A stretch of DNA of 64,000 nucleotides from Nitrospirota bacterium (GCA_963737155.1 CAVTRN010000002.1:800001-864000); one strand, 5' to 3'. Counted from the stretch's first letter, positions 42,646-51,161 are shown. Numbers and translations are program-made. Notes: generated from the sequence alone by a model not told the origin.

Positions 42646-43446
42646 CTACTGGATATTGCCGCCGCTGGTTATCGCCAATTCACCCATGGTCCCGGACAGG
42701 CCGCTGTCTTTCTCATCGCGATAGCCGTTTATCTTTTCTGCAATTGACAGCGGGTGCTCCCCGTCATTTATGGACAGAATACCTTCGATGGCACCATGCA
42801 TGAGCGCCTCGGTCTGGATGGAGCGTTCTTCTAGTTTTGCGCAGAGTGGCAGCATAAAAAGATTTGAAATGATTACCCCGTAAAACGTGGACATCATGGC
42901 CATGGCCATGAGAGGAGCCATCGAATCGATTGACTGCATATTTTTAAACATGTTTATCAGGCTGATTACGGTTCCCGCAAGACCGAGGGAAGGGGTAAGC
43001 CGTGCAATTGTCTTCAGAACATTCTGACTGAAATTAAAGTCCATAATTATCACCGCCATCTCCCTTTCCATAATGGCTCTGATTTCTTCGCGCGATTTAG
43101 TGGTTAACAAAAGATTAACGCCCAGCTTTAATAAATCGTCCTCGATAAACTTTGCATGTTTTTCCAGTCCCCGGATATCGGCTCTTCGGCTGGCTCTCGC
43201 AATCTCCAAAATATCTTTGGACAAAGCCAGCCTGTCTCTTTGGGGCCGGAATGCATCAATGATGCAGGCGAAAGTTTTTTTGAGCCTTGTGACGGGAAAA
43301 CCAAGAAAAACAGCAACAATCGTTCCGCCGAGAACGATTGCCAGCGCGTCAGGATTGAAAACCATTGACATCCCGATATTTCGGAAAACTGTAGTGGAAA
43401 ATAACGCGAGAGCAATAACAAAAATACCGGCAACAATACTGTTCAT
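42646..43446 (-). CDS. motA: flagellar stator protein MotA
   Basis: IVLGGT, SRRADIRGLE, PSLGLAGTVISL, TFYGV..PL. Confidence 0.85.
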   Translation of the reverse strand: MNSIVAGIFVIALALFSTTVFRNIGMSMVFNPDALAIVLGGTIVAVFLGFPVTRLKKTFACIIDAFRPQRDRLALSKDILEIARASRRADIRGLEKHAKFIEDDLLKLGVNLLLTTKSREEIRAIMEREMAVIIMDFNFSQNVLKTIARLTPSLGLAGTVISLINMFKNMQSIDSMAPLMAMAMMSTFYGVIISNLFMLPLCAKLEERSIQTEALMHGAIEGILSINDGEHPLSIAEKINGYRDEKDSGLSGTMGELAITSGGNIQ

Positions 43447-43493
43447 ACTATCCTCCAGCGGTTTGTGCTCTATTGAATCCCTTCCAATGAATT

Positions 43494-43510
43494 AGCAACT
43501 ATGATGCCAA
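43494..43510 (-). promoter_or_regulatory. sigma54 promoter of motAB
   Basis: TTGGCATCATAGTTGCT with canonical GG-N10-GC, about 50 nt upstream of the motA start. Confidence 0.8.
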
Positions 43511-43869
43511 GAGAAGCATTTCTCTGAAATCTTGATTTCTTGCTGGATGTGGTACTATTATATTAAGTCTATGAAGTATTAACGTGACGTTTTTCAGACT
43601 TTTCATGAGGAATTATTTTCCGAAGAGGAAATGTTTTCCCGGTGAGGCTGGAAAATTGTAGCGGGAGAAGAAGGTTAAATGAGCAGACATTTTATATTGA
43701 TTAATATTTTGCATAATATGGCTTTATAGGGTTTATCATGAAGCTGAACCGCCTTTGAAGGAATATAATGCTGCGAGTTAATATGTATAACGTCGCCGAT
43801 GTCAGTAAGTAGATTAATTTTAAATATTTTCAACAGTATACGTTTTATTGTTGTTTGCAGGGTGCTGCT

Positions 43870-43974
43870 CTACTTGGCTGCATTAACGCCGACGATAAAA
43901 TAATTTTTTGACCAGCGAAGCTCTTTCTTCAGTTGATGTATCTGTTCAAGTCTGATATCATCAGTGTAGTTCAA
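43870..43974 (-). pseudogene. 5' remnant of a second IS110-family transposase
   Basis: AGGAGG + (L)NYTDDIRLEQIHQLKKELRWSKNYFIVGVNAAK*, resembling the LIVGIDVAK start of IS110 DEDD domains. Confidence 0.5.
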
Positions 43975-44105
43975 AGAGCCTCCTGTAATTTAGTCCCCCC
44001 ATAAATTGCTTTTTTATCAGGAGATTTCTGTTTTGGATAGTTGGGAAGCAAAACATCACGCTGCGGTTTTTTGCGAATAATGGTTAAACTGCGACGAAGG
44101 ATTGT

Positions 44106-44225
44106 ATGAAACGAAGATCAGGTGCGGATCGACGAAAACTCAATAATCCAAATTACAGAGGGCCAGACCGGAGATGTGGAAAAGACAGAAGGTCTGGCAA
44201 AGATCGTCGAAAATCGAATTTCTAA
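44106..44225 (+). CDS. 39-aa Arg-rich micropeptide A, putative c-di-GMP-binding protein
   Basis: RBS GAAGGA; MKRRSGADRRKLNNPNYRGPDRRCGKDRRSGKDRRKSNF; paralog at 46320. Confidence 0.75.
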   Translation: MKRRSGADRRKLNNPNYRGPDRRCGKDRRSGKDRRKSNF

Positions 44226-44309
44226 GAGATGTGCAAGGTGATGTGAGCGGTTACATACTGGTAATATAACTTTCCATCATAAATATGGTAATCAATGCGT
44301 GGAGGGGAT

Positions 44310-44712
44310 ATGTAGACGGTATTACTGGTCGACGAAGATCGACCTATTGAGTTATCTCTAATTTATCCTGTGCTCTGGAGGAAACAATATATTTTCAGAA
44401 GCCGATGCGCGATTGGCCTTACAAGCTCGCCAGAAAGGAATCAAAATAGAGCGGGGGAAGCGGATTCCTGAAGGATGCCCTGCTGATAGCGGAGTTGGGC
44501 TTCCGGAAAATCTTCGTTCTGTCCCGATTGACGCGGAGCTGACGAGGTAGGTTTTTCCCAATCTGGCAACTACTGCAAAAGAATCGATGACCGACGAAGG
44601 CGCCTTAAGCATCGCAGGAGAAAATATTCATCATATCGCCGATGATGGGTTATCGCTGCCCGACGGGGATTACATCAATTTGATCTTGCGGGATTCAGGA
44701 TCGGGATTGAAA
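44310..44712 (+). pseudogene. decayed receiver/histidine-kinase gene
   Basis: GGAGGGG + M*TVLLVDED; then LPENLRSVPIDAELTR*VFPNLATTAKESMTDEGALSIAGEN..GDYINLILRDSGSG (HATPase_c N and G1 boxes); stops at 44313 and 44548. Confidence 0.65.
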
Positions 44713-45020
44713 CCATGATGGGGAAAAGACTTTCTTCCTAAGCGACAAGAAAAACGTATACGCCTTCTTGGACAGCCATCGCCAATCAGTTAGAGCGATT
44801 TGTAAGCGAGAAGATTCATTTTCGGCTACCCCAGGTGAAGCACTGAAGGGGAATACAGGTGCTTGCCATGCTGAGTACATTCCGAATAATATTACCTTAC
44901 CAGGAACTCCAAGAAAAACCGCGCATTATTTGCGAAGAAATATTTCAATTCATTAGCACTTTTTCAAGGACTAAGGTGAATCTTAACCCGGCTCTAGAAT
45001 CCCCGGCAGCGGTAATAAAG

Positions 45021-46190
45021 ATGAAAAATAACAAAACCTTGCCGTATCTGTTTAACACATGGCATTTTATCTGGATTGCTATTTTATTCGCTGAATTGTT
45101 TACAACAGTCGCGAATGCTATCCAGAGTGTTCTTTGGTATGGGAAAATCTCATCGAGCCTGATGATTATAGGTGCAATCGACGCCTTGGTTGTATCCTCC
45201 ATCGTTGCGCCCATTACGTTCTATTTGATTCGGCATACGACCGAACTCAAAAAAATTAACGAGCAACTTCATCAGGAAATTGCTGAGCGTAAACGAGCGG
45301 AAACAGCCATGAAAAAGAGCGAAAATAAATATCGTACTATTTTCGAAAATGTCCAGGATATTTTTTATCAGACGGATATGCACGGCAACATAACTGATAT
45401 AAGCCCATCCATAACGAAGTATACAGGTTATTCACGTGAAGAGCTGATTGGCAAACCCGTGGCGAGTGTATATTTTAATCTAGAAGACAGAGATAAGATA
45501 CTGGAAATGACGCGGGAAACGGGAGAAGTCATTGATTATGAAATCGTGATCAAAGCCAAAAATGATCGTCAGGTGCAGATGTCGCTTCATGCGCATTTTC
45601 TGCATGATGTCGAAGGAAACCCTGCAGGTGTTGAGGGTGTAATGCGGGACATCACCGAACGAAAGCAGGTGGCAGCTCAACTGAAACAGCTGAATGAAAG
45701 ACTGTCCCGCCAAGCGACGACTGACCCCCTGACGCGGGTAGCCAACCGATTAAAGTTTAATGATGTGCTAAACACCGAGATTCGTCGAGCAACGCGGTTC
45801 AATACATCGCTTTCACTAGTGATGTTCGATGTTGATGATTTTAAGAAAATCAATGACAGCTATGGCCACCATGTGGGCGACAATGTCTTGCGTGAGTTGG
45901 CCGCTCTCGTTGCGCAAAATGTCAGAATCAACGATCTTTTCGCACGATGGGGTGGTGAAGAATTTATGATCATGGTGACAAATACGCCTATTGACCATGT
46001 GCGACATTATGCAGAGAAACTTCGCCTTATAATTGAAAAACATGATTTCCCCTGCGATCATCATGTGACATGCAGTTTTGGTGTGGCCCATCTCGGGATA
46101 GATGAGAATAACGACCGATTCATTCAGAAGGCGGACATTGCTCTCTATCGGGCAAAGGGACAGGGACGGAATAGAGTCGAAATAGCCTGA
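45021..46190 (+). CDS. membrane-anchored PAS-GGDEF diguanylate cyclase
   Basis: 2 TM helices, coiled coil, PAS/PAC ending DITERK, DPLT..NR, DVDDFKKINDSYGH, I-site RIND five residues before GGEEF. Confidence 0.93.
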   Translation: MKNNKTLPYLFNTWHFIWIAILFAELFTTVANAIQSVLWYGKISSSLMIIGAIDALVVSSIVAPITFYLIRHTTELKKINEQLHQEIAERKRAETAMKKSENKYRTIFENVQDIFYQTDMHGNITDISPSITKYTGYSREELIGKPVASVYFNLEDRDKILEMTRETGEVIDYEIVIKAKNDRQVQMSLHAHFLHDVEGNPAGVEGVMRDITERKQVAAQLKQLNERLSRQATTDPLTRVANRLKFNDVLNTEIRRATRFNTSLSLVMFDVDDFKKINDSYGHHVGDNVLRELAALVAQNVRINDLFARWGGEEFMIMVTNTPIDHVRHYAEKLRLIIEKHDFPCDHHVTCSFGVAHLGIDENNDRFIQKADIALYRAKGQGRNRVEIA

Positions 46191-46319
46191 TTGATATATT
46201 TAGCGGCAATAGGGCTAAAACTGATAAACTGAATTATGGAAAACTGAGTTGAGCTTACTTTTAAACTGGTGGATCTGTCCGTGCATTGGACTTGGGAAAT
46301 AAGCTGTAGCGAGGTGTGT

Positions 46320-46445
46320 ATGCAGATGAGTCGGAGATCAGGTGAAGATCGAAGGAAACTGAGCGGCCCAAATTATCGAGGGCCGGAGCGAAGAAACGGT
46401 AAAGAGAGAAGAGCGGGCAACGATCGCCGAAAATATAAATTATGA
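46320..46445 (+). CDS. 41-aa Arg-rich micropeptide B, putative c-di-GMP-binding protein
   Basis: RBS GAGGTG; MQMSRRSGEDRRKLSGPNYRGPERRNGKERRAGNDRRKYKL; paralog at 44106. Confidence 0.75.
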   Translation: MQMSRRSGEDRRKLSGPNYRGPERRNGKERRAGNDRRKYKL

Positions 46446-46499
46446 TCGTAGAAGCGTCATCTATACAAGACTAGAGAAAATAGCAATTGGAGAAACAGG

Positions 46500-47216
46500 A
46501 TGCGAGATTTGAGGAGATACCAGAGGTTCAAGGTGGACTTAACCGACCTGAGCAGCAAGATGAGCTCAATTGGCAAAGTAGAAATTATTGATATTAGCCT
46601 GGGTGGAGTAGCACTCAAGGCAGACAGGAAGCTTAATATAGGGAAAGAGTGCTTGATGACGCTCGGATACGAGGGGATGCATATTAATGTTCGGGGGATA
46701 GTAGTTCGTTCCGAATTAAGCGGGATTGAAGAACGATCTCATGGGGGGAAAGTCACTATTTACTCGGCTGGTATAGTATTTAAAGATGAATCAGCAGATA
46801 AAGTTAAGGATTTGCTCGATTCAATTGAAAATAACAAGAAAACACCGGTGCCAGAGCGGCCTGAATGGTTCTATAGCGACATTCAGTTTTCCATCACAAC
46901 GCCCAACGAAGAAGTTCTGAAGCTGCCCACACAGTTCGGCGTAAAAGATATTAGCCAGAGTGGTGTAATTATCCAAACTGATCATCAATTGAAGATAGAC
47001 AGCATGGTTCTCATGGAGTTGTCAGTTAACTCTTGTAATTCTGTAAGTTTTATGGGGAAAATTGTTGCGTGTCGCATGACTCAGGATGCGGAGCATGCAT
47101 ATTATGACATAGGGGTGGAATTCTCAGAATTAACGGATCGGGACAGGTCACTGCTTATGAGCTTTAGAGAATGTGTTAAAGAAAATGAAAATAACGGCAA
47201 AAAGCACGGAAAATAA
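46500..47216 (+). CDS. tandem PilZ-domain protein
   Basis: first domain RRYQR + DISLGG; second domain DISQSG..IGVEF without a clear RxxxR. Confidence 0.88.
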   Translation: MRDLRRYQRFKVDLTDLSSKMSSIGKVEIIDISLGGVALKADRKLNIGKECLMTLGYEGMHINVRGIVVRSELSGIEERSHGGKVTIYSAGIVFKDESADKVKDLLDSIENNKKTPVPERPEWFYSDIQFSITTPNEEVLKLPTQFGVKDISQSGVIIQTDHQLKIDSMVLMELSVNSCNSVSFMGKIVACRMTQDAEHAYYDIGVEFSELTDRDRSLLMSFRECVKENENNGKKHGK

Positions 47217-47542
47217 GGAATGACAATTTTAACCTGCCTCGGTTAACTTTCTTGACCAGCACATGAAGATCTTCATCACATGGAGATACTCATTTGGAAT
47301 GCTAACCATCTTACAATCCGGAAATGGATTCCTCCTCCCCCTGCTTGCTCTCACCCGTGATCACGTTGCTCGCTGGATATGATATGTACCTGGCCCATCT
47401 CTGAATGCCCCATGGCGGAATTGACTACCAGGGGACATGCGCACTTTTGGAGGTTGGCTTATGCACCGAAGAAGAACCATATTTATTGTGGTGCGTAGCG
47501 ACCTTGTTCCAGGGACAATGAAGGCTGTATCCCGCGCGGTGT

Positions 47543-48298
47543 CTATTGCCCGGTCTTGCCTGGAGAAAGCTTGTTCAGGGAGTTGTGCAGATCTTGCAAA
47601 TCAGCGATGATCGTGTCGAGATCGAATTTGTGCCAATCGAGCATGGCGGAGTGCAGGTGTAAACGGGCATCGCGCAAGGTTCTGGCTTTTTCGGATCCCT
47701 CGACAGGATGGTAAAGCTTCGTGTCTGCATCGACAAGGGTACTGCTCTGCCTCAGCAAGAGCAATACCGCCTTCGCTTTTTCGGGCACATAGGGGAAGAT
47801 GCCCATTCGCGTATTATGGCACCGCTCGCACACGGCCGTAATGGTGTCGGGTGTTAAAATATCTGTTACCATCGAGCCATGGCATGTTACACATTCGGGG
47901 CCTTTTCCCTCCGATTCAAGCATCTTGTAATGAAGGCTCTGGGTGAATTTATAGAATTCAGCTCCGTGACACTTGCCGCAGGTTGACGGGATGTTTTTGA
48001 AGTACACTGTGCTTCGGGCATCGGCCGAACCATACATGTCCGCATGGGCATCCTTCTGCCCGGGAGCGCGGGGATCGCCTCCATGGCATTTGTCGCAGGT
48101 CACTCCATGCTTTTGGTGTACCGATCCGTTCCAACTATGAGACTTTACGCCCACAAAACTGCTGCCCGGAAGCTGCGAATGGCAAGCGATGCAGGAATTC
48201 CCCGTTTCATTTTTGTCAGCACCGTATGTGGCCGCTGCAAACAGGAATGCGCCGCACGCCAAAAGGGCGCATACGAGAACCTGGTCACGTTTTGACAT
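47543..48298 (-). CDS. periplasmic pentaheme cytochrome c
   Basis: signal peptide; CIACH, CDKCH, CGKCH, CVTCH, CERCH. Confidence 0.92.
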   Translation of the reverse strand: MSKRDQVLVCALLACGAFLFAAATYGADKNETGNSCIACHSQLPGSSFVGVKSHSWNGSVHQKHGVTCDKCHGGDPRAPGQKDAHADMYGSADARSTVYFKNIPSTCGKCHGAEFYKFTQSLHYKMLESEGKGPECVTCHGSMVTDILTPDTITAVCERCHNTRMGIFPYVPEKAKAVLLLLRQSSTLVDADTKLYHPVEGSEKARTLRDARLHLHSAMLDWHKFDLDTIIADLQDLHNSLNKLSPGKTGQ

Positions 48299-49538
48299 TA
48301 CCGCCTCCCTTTCTGTTGTGCCAGCGCAAAACAGTGTAGCTAATACTCCACGCCGCTGCGGTTGCGAGTATAGCGAAGAGCGTCATCGCCTTCGGCGTGA
48401 TATGAAGCACGTCGATGTAGCCGGCCACGACCATCATGCAGAGGAAAATGATACCCCCGATACCCATAGAGGTCATGAAGGGCCTGTGGAGCGGATTTTC
48501 CATATAGTACTGCGGCACCTTTGCCCGGTCGAAGAAGGGGATTAATGCATACACAACGAATGTGAACGCCGGGAAAAAGACGCCGCCGATAGTCTCGGGC
48601 GTAATCTTCCCTCCCCAAATAGAGAATGACAGGTCGCCAGGCACCAGTTTCAGGAATCCATACACGACGAGGAAATACCAGTCAGGCCTCATCACGGGGG
48701 TTCCCGGCGACGGCGGTCCGTACGTTTCTATCGGATTCAACGGAATATACGTCGCCATCATCACGACTACAAACAGCAAAAACAGGAAAAATGACAGGCT
48801 GATGACGGCCTGTTCGGGCCAGATCGGGATGCCGATGAGCCTCCTCCCGCCCTGCGCCTCTTTGCGATCCCTGTTAGACCGGGGCTCCGTGTGTTTTTGC
48901 TTGACTAAAATGAGCAGGTGCAGGCCAATGAGGCCGACCAGTATTGTTGGAATCAGCATGACATGCATGAAGAAGAAACGGGGGACGGTCCCGTCTGAAG
49001 GGAAGTCACCTGCAAAGAGGAGCCTGGACATCCATTCCCCGACCCAGGGCACCGACTTTGCCATATAATAGGCAATGGATGTAGCGGTAACCGAGAACTG
49101 ACTGTAGGGGAGCAAGTAACCGGTAAATGCCGCAATCATGGAAGTGCCCCATAAACCGAGCCCCACGAGCCAGTTAATTTCCCGGGGCTTCCTATATGAC
49201 GCAGTGAAGTATATCCGCAGGAGATGGGCAAGGATGGCGGCGATCATGATCATTGCTGACCAATGATGAATGCGTCTTATAATCAGGCCCATGGGGAGCA
49301 GGTCAATTCTTACCACACTCGCATAAGCTGCTGGAACCATCGCACCGAAGAGGGATACCATCGCAGTCGAAGGCTCATAGAGAAATCCGAGGAAGATGCC
49401 AGTTGTGACAAGTGTAATGAAGGAGAACAACGCCGTTTCTCCGAGGAGGAAGATGGGGTGGGTCGGGAATGTCTTGCTCAGGAACTTCTCCTTGAACTTT
49501 CTGAGCTCCAATCTTTCATCGAGCCATTTGAAGACCAT
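48285..49538 (-). CDS. cytochrome b of a Rieske/cytochrome b complex (unsplit)
   Basis: RRIHHWSA..AHLLR, YRKPREINW, FTGYLLP, HVML..LH heme ligands, Qo motif PDWY. Confidence 0.95.
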   Translation of the reverse strand: MVFKWLDERLELRKFKEKFLSKTFPTHPIFLLGETALFSFITLVTTGIFLGFLYEPSTAMVSLFGAMVPAAYASVVRIDLLPMGLIIRRIHHWSAMIMIAAILAHLLRIYFTASYRKPREINWLVGLGLWGTSMIAAFTGYLLPYSQFSVTATSIAYYMAKSVPWVGEWMSRLLFAGDFPSDGTVPRFFFMHVMLIPTILVGLIGLHLLILVKQKHTEPRSNRDRKEAQGGRRLIGIPIWPEQAVISLSFFLFLLFVVVMMATYIPLNPIETYGPPSPGTPVMRPDWYFLVVYGFLKLVPGDLSFSIWGGKITPETIGGVFFPAFTFVVYALIPFFDRAKVPQYYMENPLHRPFMTSMGIGGIIFLCMMVVAGYIDVLHITPKAMTLFAILATAAAWSISYTVLRWHNRKGGGNVKT

Positions 49539-49556
49539 AGCCGTGTCCTCGCTTCC

Positions 49557-50171
49557 CTATACCTGCGGCCCGATCGGACCGTTGAAATCACTCGTAAAGG
49601 CAAGCGTTCCACCCTGCATTAACTTCACTCCGATTTGTGCGAGAGGGACCGGCGCCGGCCCGCCCATGACTTTTGCCCCCTGCGCAGGATTGAATATGCT
49701 GCCATGACAGGGGCATTCCGTGTATGATGCAAGGGGTGATTCCTTGTTTGCCATCCAGGAGACGGTACAGCCGAGATGAGTGCAGATAGCGCTATAGGCT
49801 ACGAACCCCTGGTCTGTCAGCGCAATGTCGGTGGGCGGCTTGAATTCCTTCGCTTCCAGTTTGATCAACTGGACAAGGTTTGCGGGGTTCGATGACTTGC
49901 CCGTGGGATAGGCGAGGACGGCATCGCCTGTCTGCATCGATGAAGCCATGATAGTTGTCCCGGCATTGTCTCCCTGTGCATACACGAGTTCGTCACCGGG
50001 CTTTATGGTCGCTGTATAGCCGCCTCCCGTCTTTTCGGGAGCAAGCTCTTTGAGCAAGGCAACAAGAGACACAAAGGCGCCAGCGACGGACACAATGAGC
50101 ATCCCAAGGGTGAACCTTCGCCGGGTGATGCCTTCCTTATTGACCTCGCTATCCGCGTTCCCGTCTACCAT
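49557..50171 (-). CDS. Rieske iron-sulfur protein
   Basis: Tat-like TRRRF anchor, CTHLGC, CPCHGSIF, GGPAP. Confidence 0.95.
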   Translation of the reverse strand: MVDGNADSEVNKEGITRRRFTLGMLIVSVAGAFVSLVALLKELAPEKTGGGYTATIKPGDELVYAQGDNAGTTIMASSMQTGDAVLAYPTGKSSNPANLVQLIKLEAKEFKPPTDIALTDQGFVAYSAICTHLGCTVSWMANKESPLASYTECPCHGSIFNPAQGAKVMGGPAPVPLAQIGVKLMQGGTLAFTSDFNGPIGPQV

Positions 50172-50428
50172 AGCAGCTCCTCCTCGCGGTCCTCCGACAC
50201 CTCCCTGAAGGGAACGAAATAGCGTGCAAAAAGAATTATCTCAATGCCAGCGATCAGCAGCTCGAAGGCCAGCAGTGAGCCCCAAAGATAGTCATTTCCC
50301 TGGCCGGATACGAGGAGATAGGCGAATGCGGCGCCCGCACCGAGAAGCAAGATTGACAGGACCAGGACCACGATCATGGCGGCAACTGGATAGGCAGGCC
50401 TCTTCTCCCGTAAGATCTCAAATCTCAT
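50165..50428 (-). CDS. small two-TM protein, probable complex subunit
   Basis: abuts or overlaps both neighbours; two hydrophobic helices. Confidence 0.8.
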   Translation of the reverse strand: MRFEILREKRPAYPVAAMIVVLVLSILLLGAGAAFAYLLVSGQGNDYLWGSLLAFELLIAGIEIILFARYFVPFREVSEDREEELLW

Positions 50429-50429
50429 G

Positions 50430-51161
50430 TCATCCCCTCCGTTCCAATACGACGTAAACGATATAGCCCATCACAAACAGGACCAGCACCGCGCCAAATG
50501 CGATGAATCCTATCTGGAAGGCATCGAGCTCCTCAGGAAACTCGGGTATGAACGGTGGTTTTTTACCGACAGTTTTCGCCTGAGCGATCTTGATCCGTAT
50601 GCCTGACAGCGCCTTCACCGTTGATGCAGTCACATCCATCGGGTCGATCTGATCGAACCCCGCCGTATCCTTGTGGCAGCTTTCACAGACCTTTGGTACC
50701 TCTGGCATGGCATTGCGGTGTGCATGGTGGCAAGTAACGCAGGAGGGCCCGCCTTTATTTTCAAGAAAGGCTGTGCCCATGATGCTCTTAGAGTACCGGT
50801 CGACGGACGCATTATGGCATCGGCTGCACAGGTCAAACAGTTTCCTGCCCGTCGGCTTGCCGATAAAGCCATGCGGTATCGACATTGCCTGTGACATTTT
50901 ATCCGCAAATGCCTGTCCGGCAATATTTTTGATGTTCTGCACATCGACATTCGGATCTCCCCCGTGACAGAGATCACAGGTTATGCCATTCTGCTGATGG
51001 ATCGAGCCTTTCCATTCCTTTACGGGTTTGCCAAGCTCAGCGTCCATAAACTCGTGGCACAGCACGCACGCCGATGGCTTCAGCTCAGCGCGTACGCTCG
51101 TTCCGAACAGTACGAGAGCCACTGCCCAGCACAGCGCAAATGCTCGTCTTGTTATCTCCAT
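50430..51161 (-). CDS. membrane-anchored pentaheme cytochrome c
   Basis: signal peptide; CVLCH, CDLCH, CSRCH, CVTCH, CESCH; C-terminal TM helix. Confidence 0.92.
   Translation of the reverse strand: MEITRRAFALCWAVALVLFGTSVRAELKPSACVLCHEFMDAELGKPVKEWKGSIHQQNGITCDLCHGGDPNVDVQNIKNIAGQAFADKMSQAMSIPHGFIGKPTGRKLFDLCSRCHNASVDRYSKSIMGTAFLENKGGPSCVTCHHAHRNAMPEVPKVCESCHKDTAGFDQIDPMDVTASTVKALSGIRIKIAQAKTVGKKPPFIPEFPEELDAFQIGFIAFGAVLVLFVMGYIVYVVLERRG

Follow-up and report, generated by a model that had tools for sequence, protein, structure and literature searches.

Stand-alone arginine-rich micro-proteins encoded beside PilZ and diguanylate cyclase genes in a Nitrospirota genome are candidate c-di-GMP-binding modules

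In a 64,000-nucleotide (nt) stretch of the genome of a Nitrospirota bacterium (G000:C2:800001-864000, from a source genome of 4.84 Mb; hereafter the window), two small open reading frames (sORFs), A (44106..44225, 39 amino acids (aa)) and B (46320..46445, 41 aa), encode arginine-rich micro-proteins and lie on either side of a diguanylate cyclase gene, with B just ahead of a gene for a tandem-PilZ protein. We find that sORFs A and B are conserved genes under purifying selection, and that they belong to a large unannotated family of Arg-rich micro-proteins of about 40–55 aa. Genes of the family are linked and fused to PilZ, REC and GGDEF and share the core of the arginine-rich region (ARR) of the Cle proteins. 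Judged from sequence and by analogy with the CleD peptide, A and B are probably free-standing ARR modules that bind cyclic di-GMP (c-di-GMP), a reading to which we assign a probability of roughly 0.6; more tentatively, they may here serve the protein of the adjacent gene.

Receptors of c-di-GMP are usually folded domains, and to our knowledge the only linear c-di-GMP-binding peptide motif is that of the alphaproteobacterial CheY-like tail, which was later engineered into c-di-GMP-sequestering peptides (CSP). The motif and its ligand are already known. What is new is that the motif occurs as a free-standing micro-protein, that this form is spread broadly beyond the alphaproteobacteria, that its genes are paired in operons with PilZ and REC-GGDEF genes, and that fusions to PilZ exist.

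Conservation of two micro-protein genes

A preliminary description of the stretch had placed both frames at these positions and aligned them with each other, and on both points it was confirmed, the two being real paralogues; its interpretation as a whole is partly supported. Each frame is preceded by a purine-rich Shine-Dalgarno-like sequence, in line with the ribosome-binding sites described earlier. Sequence B has two in-frame ATGs, at 46320 and 46326, to which the GAGG stands at distances of 5 nt and 11 nt; the second of these ATGs is the start common to all relatives. Aligned without gaps from this shared ATG, the 39 codons of A and B comprise 17 identical, 10 synonymous and 12 non-synonymous pairs, giving identity at 27 of 39 residues. 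The 26 identities reported earlier over a 34-residue stretch, 10 of them by different codons, were recovered, and all five RR pairs are retained in both peptides. The accompanying statement that acidic positions exchange only Asp and Glu holds at two positions and fails at a third, where A has Ala and B has Glu. The pattern [DEN]RR-x6-[YF]xGPx[RK]R occurs five times in the 9.67 million residues of the six-frame translated genome, each time in a member of the family, and composition-preserving shuffles, 200,000 for each peptide, never yield the core pattern from A and yield it 7 times from B; the motif is beyond chance.

A six-frame scan identified five family copies in the genome, namely A, B, a further stand-alone copy (C) and two C-terminal tails. 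A profile of the five copies found matches in 19 of 41 related genomes, including 13 of the 14 within the genus. When the phylum was sampled more widely, 31 of 201 genomes matched at E ≤ 1e-6, with 29 of 44 in the bacterium's own family and 1 of 156 in all other families. Two forms recur in the relatives, open frames of 42–90 aa and tails of 385–440-aa frames. The ATG stands exactly 16 codons before an invariant Tyr in 16/16 type-1 copies, a GAGG-like site is found 5–10 nt upstream of the start in nearly all stand-alone type-1 copies, and the stop is also conserved.

The pooled ratio of non-synonymous to synonymous substitution rates (dN/dS) is 0.14 for 16 type-1 genes (36 codons) and 0.18 for nine type-2 genes, values drawn from non-independent pairs and with dS near saturation. 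Being far under 1, they bear out the earlier proposal of selection on the peptide. Mean pairwise differences at codon positions 1, 2 and 3 are 0.175, 0.166 and 0.456. Compared with its orthologues in the related loci L024 and L025, A has pairwise dN/dS values of 0.19 and 0.13, and DNA homology with L024 begins 22 nt upstream of the ATG. Two copies have decayed: one (L027, genome G011), among REC-HD_5 genes, has an in-frame TGA and no ATG, and in the other (L128, genome G014), 130 nt upstream of an intact PilZ orthologue, stops replace the Tyr region.

Copy C (C2:2868992..2869225, minus strand) is followed immediately by a paralogous tandem-PilZ gene (238 aa), which shares 87% identity with the PilZ gene of the window. 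The two peptide-PilZ modules are 88% identical over 927 columns, with homology running from 3 nt before ATG 46326 to just beyond the PilZ stop; gaps are confined to the spacer and the start of PilZ, and the peptide ORF is free of indels. The stop codon of C is lost, leaving a 64-aa ORF that overlaps the PilZ start. An IS630-like DDE transposase gene (G000:C2:2869414..2870442; L001:5417-6442) is found directly upstream of the C-PilZ module, an adjacency compatible with recent duplication or transposition of that module.

An exhaustive profile search covering 1.84 billion representatives, with clusters at 50% identity, matched 643 protein clusters at E ≤ 0.001, of which 47 also pass E ≤ 1e-10; it supersedes a word-index search for proteins similar in length to peptide B, which had returned no candidate. 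Among the best 150 representatives 109 are of ≤100 aa and eight belong to a tail-bearing family of about 385 aa; the homologues are mostly stand-alone and not merely tails of longer proteins, in agreement with the earlier view of A and B as domain-free. Pfam returned no family for A and B, DUF1127 included, and NCBIfam none for A, B, C and ten other small family members; the 109 representatives of ≤100 aa have no Pfam match, except for one (P0135, B12-binding_2). The source names of the family proteins are 'hypothetical protein' only, and the nearest clusters in the Protein Atlas, taken here just as a lead, are 'hypothetical protein' clusters of 46–52 aa (score 0.89).

A pattern scan of 185,579 species genomes, for which a five-row alignment was used, gave 90 confirmed relatives, of which 80 were kept (56 short frames and 24 long). 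The short relatives carry the labels Nitrospirota, WOR-3, Atribacterota, Deltaproteobacteria/Syntrophaceae, Acidobacteriota and Cloacimonadota, and others come from Ignavibacteria, Bacteroidia, Sphingopyxis/Stakelama and one metagenome-assembled genome (MAG) labelled 'archaeon'. This last genome (1.3 Mb, locus L078) has a stand-alone ARR micro-protein with an adjoining HD_5 gene and two GGDEF matches; because such a gene set is unusual in an archaeon, its label or binning may be wrong.

Relation to the c-di-GMP-binding region of Cle proteins

The ARR consensus given by Nesper et al. in 2017 is a tandem of [Y/F]xGP[D/E][R/K]R (PMC5677366), and that work counts 302 ARR proteins, 294 of them alphaproteobacterial, 91% CheY-like and 5% without a known domain. 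For the peptide itself, Hee et al. 2020 (PMC7382256) define the c-di-GMP motif DRR-x11-(R/K)RxxD and report that CleD residues 154–172 suffice for binding, the 19-mer CSP4 having a Kd of 177 nM; CSP4 lacks the first Y-x-G-P and yet binds with this affinity. In the same report, Ala at CleD R155, R156, Y163, G165, R168 or R169 causes anything from an 8-fold to a total loss of binding, and D172A raises the Kd of CSP4 about 10-fold. Our literature search, PMC12943098 included, found no report of natural stand-alone ARR or CSP peptides, nor any account of their spread beyond the alphaproteobacteria, of operons that pair them with PilZ or REC-GGDEF genes or of PilZ fusions; the supplementary list of the 302 ARR proteins may hold small domain-less members, and the 5% without a known domain (PMC5677366) may overlap with the A/B family.

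Peptides A, B and C have DRR, 11 residues and then RR, that is, the spacing of DRR-x11-(R/K)R, and [Y/F]xGP[D/E][R/K]R is present in A and B, so the earlier equation of their motif with that of the Cle arginine-rich region holds. At least six of eight key positions in the CleD register are found in 137 of the 150 best representatives, and within these 137 windows the motif residues are kept as follows: Y in 126, G in 126, P in 111, E in 131, the first R in 121 and the second R in 136. Across 34 aligned copies, the columns that are invariant or at least 90% conserved are R9, R10, Y17, G19, R22 and R23, which correspond to CleD R155, R156, Y163, G165, R168 and R169. Searched against 177,635 PDB sequences, the family profile gave a single significant match, the CleD peptide (6sft_A, E 0.0055; next E 1.7), a test that is independent of the choice of motif. 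Moreover, the scan of species genomes also returned five alphaproteobacterial REC+ARR proteins with DRR at the same upstream spacing, and this upstream DRR was not part of the scan pattern.

The family thus shares with the Cle ARR and CSP1–CSP4 (6SFT) a length of about 20–36 residues, an Arg-rich composition, predicted disorder, an identical register (D-R-R, x6, Y-x-G-P-[DE]-R-R) and conservation of the very residues with which CleD binds an intercalated c-di-GMP dimer. It differs in that A and B each form an ORF of their own, complete with start and stop, whereas the Cle ARR is a C-terminal extension of a receiver domain, and in the addition of one or two G-x-[DE]-R-R repeats with invariant Arg pairs. 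In contrast to the alphaproteobacterial Cle ARR, most of the family comes from Nitrospirota, WOR-3, Atribacterota, Desulfobacterota-like and other anaerobe MAGs. In AlphaFold models of a natural ARR-PilZ fusion and of a 389-aa protein that carries the module as a tail, the per-residue confidence (pLDDT) of the module stays below 55, which matches disorder of the ligand-free module without being proof of it.

A second comparison is with PilZ proteins, in which the N-terminal RxxxR loop is a flexible Arg-rich stretch closing over a c-di-GMP dimer, as the module would be; in natural fusions the ARR module is contiguous with this loop. MapZ and PA4608, small single-domain PilZ adaptors (PMC7382256), are also like the micro-proteins in being small, and they relay a signal to a partner, as the micro-proteins would. 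Unlike PilZ and MapZ, the micro-proteins have neither a beta-barrel nor DxSxxG, and binding would be by the peptide alone or in trans.

Gene neighbourhood, fusions and alternative explanations

The features of the locus, in window coordinates and all on the plus strand, are as follows.

44096..44101, plus strand: Shine-Dalgarno-like GAAGGA, 4 nt 5' of the peptide A ATG (read from the sequence)
44106..44225, plus strand: micro-protein A, 39 aa, A-type stand-alone ARR-like, net charge +12 (ORF)
44310..44451, plus strand: truncated and frameshifted remnant of a REC (CheY-like receiver) gene (tblastn against the REC of L024)
45021..46190, plus strand: PAS-GGDEF diguanylate cyclase, likely start ATG 45021, 389 aa (Pfam and DNA homology with L024)
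46311..46314, plus strand: Shine-Dalgarno-like GAGG ahead of peptide B (read from the sequence)
46320..46445, plus strand: micro-protein B, 41 aa from ATG 46320 or 39 aa from ATG 46326, net charge +10 (ORF)
46500..47216, plus strand: tandem-PilZ protein, 238 aa (Pfam PilZ, two stretches)

A B-type gene is followed directly by a tandem-PilZ gene of 226–240 aa at eight loci (the window, copy C, L005, L006, L011, L016, L043 and L045, the PilZ gene of L005 being split by a frameshift), and REC and/or GGDEF genes lie downstream of the peptide at six. In L024 the A-type gene precedes a 124-aa receiver and a 389-aa PAS-GGDEF protein, and in L025 an intact receiver. The window has kept less of this order. 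The L024 receiver is matched only at residues 1–13 and 12–48, in two frames (tblastn E 0.043 and 6e-9), and between this remnant and the cyclase lie about 570 nt (44452..45020) without a match in the orthologous loci. Because only REC residues 1–48 survive, followed by this unrelated sequence, we read A in the window as the head of a decayed peptide-REC-cyclase operon. The cyclase is flanked by A and B, as had been described, and A does not directly precede it. A subtype with a helix plus the ARR lies ahead of a DUF4118-GGDEF gene at three loci (L012, L087 and L094). In the genome as a whole, PilZ-domain matches number 13, spread over 11 frames, and GGDEF matches number 19, so chance adjacency is unlikely.

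Fusions of the module provide independent support for a link to c-di-GMP signalling. PilZ is the commonest fused Pfam domain, found in 4 of 12 annotated proteins among the best 150 representatives, and is the only one that is repeated there; among the best 120 longer matches, 29 of which are annotated, PilZ accounts for nine, double zinc ribbon for six, HNH for three and mitofilin-like for three. The module can stand on either side of PilZ; in the N-terminal position its final Arg pair leads straight into the RxxxR loop of PilZ. Other fusions are to receivers, five chemoreceptors (MCP), a CheA, a CpaB/RcpC pilus protein, two MMPL membrane proteins and one RRM protein (L113). An apparent 296-aa peptide-PilZ fusion (P0160) was rejected, since its gene call had merely been lengthened by reading through the peptide gene in a different frame.

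If the CleD peptide is a guide, each micro-protein would wrap an intercalated c-di-GMP dimer. The Asp/Glu-Arg-Arg triplet would contact the ligand together with the invariant Tyr, the turn at Gly and a further Arg-Arg pair 11 residues on, and the intrinsically disordered peptide would fold upon binding. Within the Nitrospirota family the peptide genes are first cistrons, B-type ahead of a tandem-PilZ effector and A-type ahead of a receiver and PAS-GGDEF cyclase; B with the tandem PilZ would then represent a split form of the ARR-PilZ fusions, and A with the receiver a split and reordered form of a Cle protein. We read A and B as split, trans-acting modules and not as partner-less buffers because the module is fused elsewhere to PilZ, REC, chemoreceptors and CheA. 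Sequence and analogy make c-di-GMP binding by A and B the probable part of this proposal; action through the protein of the neighbouring gene is put forward tentatively. As the second PilZ domain of the window protein has no RxxxR, it is conceivable, as speculation, that the peptide supplies Arg in trans. Complex prediction with alignments for the tandem PilZ, two c-di-GMP and the peptide returned no verdict, with a score of 0.00 in two runs made without controls.

Several observations weigh against binding of c-di-GMP in partnership with a neighbouring protein. A tandem of two full motifs is absent, as had been pointed out when a single YxGPxRR was described, the first unit being S-G-x-D-R-R, without Tyr or Pro; yet the entire minimal DRR-x11-RR core of the 19-mer CSP4 is there, which is more than a single YxGPxRR. 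At the position of CleD D172 the family has K, L, I or R, with the acid one residue later. The c-di-GMP neighbourhood proposed at the outset is found, as PilZ or REC-GGDEF operons, in the Nitrospirota family and does not extend to other phyla: among 49 further stand-alone loci, for which 147 of 156 neighbouring ORFs were scanned, a PilZ, GGDEF or HD_5 neighbour is present at six, comprising 5 of 14 in Nitrospirota and only 1 of 35 outside it. Within the Nitrospirota relatives, the T2 subtype stands before a dCTP deaminase gene (four loci) and the T3 subtype between DedA-like and polysaccharide-export genes (four loci). The repeated synteny amounts to few independent events because the related genomes are kin. 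Nor is the pairing with PilZ obligatory, since of 12 close homologues of the window PilZ gene six have an intact peptide gene upstream, one has a remnant and five have none within 500 nt. Some fusion partners are not specific to c-di-GMP (double zinc ribbon six, HNH nuclease three, RRM one). On the other side, GGDEF genes were found in all five of the carriers from other phyla that were tested, an outcome that could have gone against the idea and did not, but the test is weak because such genes are common.

The lack of a c-di-GMP neighbourhood outside this Nitrospirota family keeps alive the explanation that the micro-proteins are general polyanion binders, basic disordered peptides for RNA, DNA, ribosomes or another nucleotide, whose likeness to the ARR reflects a generic Arg/Tyr nucleotide clamp. 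A net charge of +10 to +12, the single c-di-GMP gene beside 35 stand-alone loci and the fusions to RRM, HNH and double zinc ribbon proteins would suit such a role, as would the precedent of the small Arg-rich DUF1127 proteins, described as RNA-binding in PMC11380419. With these A and B have in common that they are very small, basic, Arg-rich bacterial proteins, and they differ in having no Pfam DUF1127 match and another conserved motif, so that the relation is one of analogy and not of membership. We regard polyanion binding as rather unlikely, since the conserved residues are exactly the c-di-GMP contacts of CleD, Tyr and Gly turn included, the CleD peptide is the sole significant PDB match, and PilZ is the commonest fused domain, followed by chemotaxis and receiver proteins. 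If c-di-GMP is the ligand, the peptides could also act as a pure sponge, with no protein partner, buffering the c-di-GMP of the neighbouring cyclase and setting thresholds for all effectors. This reading, which follows the buffer role suggested in the preliminary description, lies inside the c-di-GMP-binding case. It draws on the report that overexpression of a CleD-derived peptide in P. aeruginosa lowered free c-di-GMP and biofilm (PMC7382256), on the predominance of stand-alone members, on the many members without an adjoining signalling gene and on the flanking of the cyclase by A and B here. Buffering, however, requires a high copy number, the recurrent in-frame fusions (PilZ in both orders, REC, MCP, CheA) point to action in a protein complex, and the A-cyclase-B layout is particular to this genome, the relative that has both modules carrying them on different contigs; we consider a pure buffer unlikely.

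Two further explanations deny a function to the peptide itself. As regulatory upstream ORFs, A and B would control the downstream PilZ or REC-cyclase genes through their translation, for example by stalling at Arg codons. The position as first cistron 54 nt before PilZ, the 11 Arg codons in 39 and the overlap of the copy C ORF with the PilZ start fit this idea, which is nevertheless very improbable, as Tyr, Gly, Pro, Asn and Asp are conserved as strongly as Arg, the Arg codons switch freely between CGN and AGR, many copies have no downstream gene on the same strand, and the same sequence occurs in mature proteins as an N- or C-terminal module. That A and B are not genes at all, being chance ORFs or a conserved non-coding element, could be argued from their being too short for gene callers and from the empty word-index search at similar length; it is close to refuted by the dN/dS of 0.14–0.18 with an excess of third-position changes, the conserved start and stop, the 643 protein clusters that match the profile, the absence of any Rfam match and the near-absence of the motif in shuffles.

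A broader proposal, held with less confidence than c-di-GMP binding by A and B, is that ARR micro-proteins at large are widespread receptors of 40–55 residues that bind c-di-GMP alone, as detachable ligand-binding arms acting in trans for PilZ, receiver or cyclase proteins or as natural sponges. If so, no smaller natural receptor of c-di-GMP would be known, the engineered CSP peptides would have counterparts in nature, and free peptides of this sort would already be in use there. With at least 643 clusters at 50% identity, the class would be common among anaerobic phyla that have been little studied and would have been missed by gene callers and family databases, and its split and fused PilZ forms would allow the study of a ligand-binding arm shared between proteins.

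Further features of the window and of the family

The domain content of the two larger genes agrees with what had been described. Between A and B, the cyclase matches GGDEF (PF00990, E 3.2e-42) and PAS (E 1.7e-14) in Pfam, and its translation has a GGEEF active site and an RxxD I-site (R-I-N-D) five residues upstream. Its longest ORF, from GTG 44859, is 443 aa, and ATG 45021 is the likelier start because DNA homology with the 389-aa orthologue of L024 begins there. The tandem-PilZ gene starts 54 nt 3' of sORF B and matches PF07238 (E 3.9e-19) in two stretches; read from the translation, domain 1 has RxxxR and DxSxxG, and domain 2 has DxSxxG without RxxxR. At E ≤ 1e-10 the protein has 349 homologues.

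Upstream of A, on the opposite strand, are genes for MotA and MotB. The suggested link to the neighbouring stator did not survive, and MotAB was rejected as part of the module, since MotA is absent from all eight A-type loci, none having it within 3 kb. A histidine-kinase-like remnant that we thought to see by eye in 44550..44900 was dropped, as Pfam was empty for six ORF fragments. Rfam gave no match anywhere in the whole window. A scan of 43400..47500 gave counts not raised above those of shuffles, with 13 promoter-like sites, against 8.3 ± 2.9 in shuffles, and two terminator-like sites, against 3.1.

The two C-terminal tails in the genome are modules of about 35 residues on paralogous proteins of 389 and 402 aa, whose genes are at G000:C2:975489..976658 and G000:C1:1602637..1603845 (L002:3489-4655 and L003:3637-4842). 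Neither protein has a Pfam or NCBIfam family. The AlphaFold model of the 389-aa protein (pLDDT 79) is a bundle of long helices, and a Foldseek search with it against PDB returned nothing at E ≤ 0.001. One of the gene copies directly follows genes resembling those of cytochrome bd oxidase. The tail-bearing family is common, since proteins of about 385 aa make up some 45 of the 120 best longer profile matches.

The ORFs of the helix-plus-ARR subtype (L087 and L094, both Nitrospirota, and L012) consist of one or two units of an amphipathic helix with the ARR module and are located between a spermidine-synthase-like gene of about 920 aa and the DUF4118-GGDEF gene. There is also a 'spermidine synthase' of 1047 aa to which the module is fused (P0337). 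At L019, L035, L036 and L040 a 46-aa subtype ending in RRSS, which was not found in the window's genome, is encoded a short way ahead of a dCTP deaminase gene. Two of the loci also have a gene for a cNMP-binding and rhodanese protein upstream of the peptide, and in L035, one of these two, the C-terminus of that protein weakly matches the module. Another subtype, with Y-Q-G-P-E-R-R, is found at L017, L018, L032 and L038, near DedA/VTT-like genes in L017 and L018 and near Poly_export/Wzz genes in L017, L018 and L032. Polysaccharide export is a type of output that is often under c-di-GMP control.

Downstream of the PilZ gene, on the minus strand of the window (47543..51161), multihaem cytochrome c-like ORFs follow one another in a run, together with a cytochrome b-like ORF (417 aa) and a Rieske-like ORF (204 aa), all recognised by eye from their translations.

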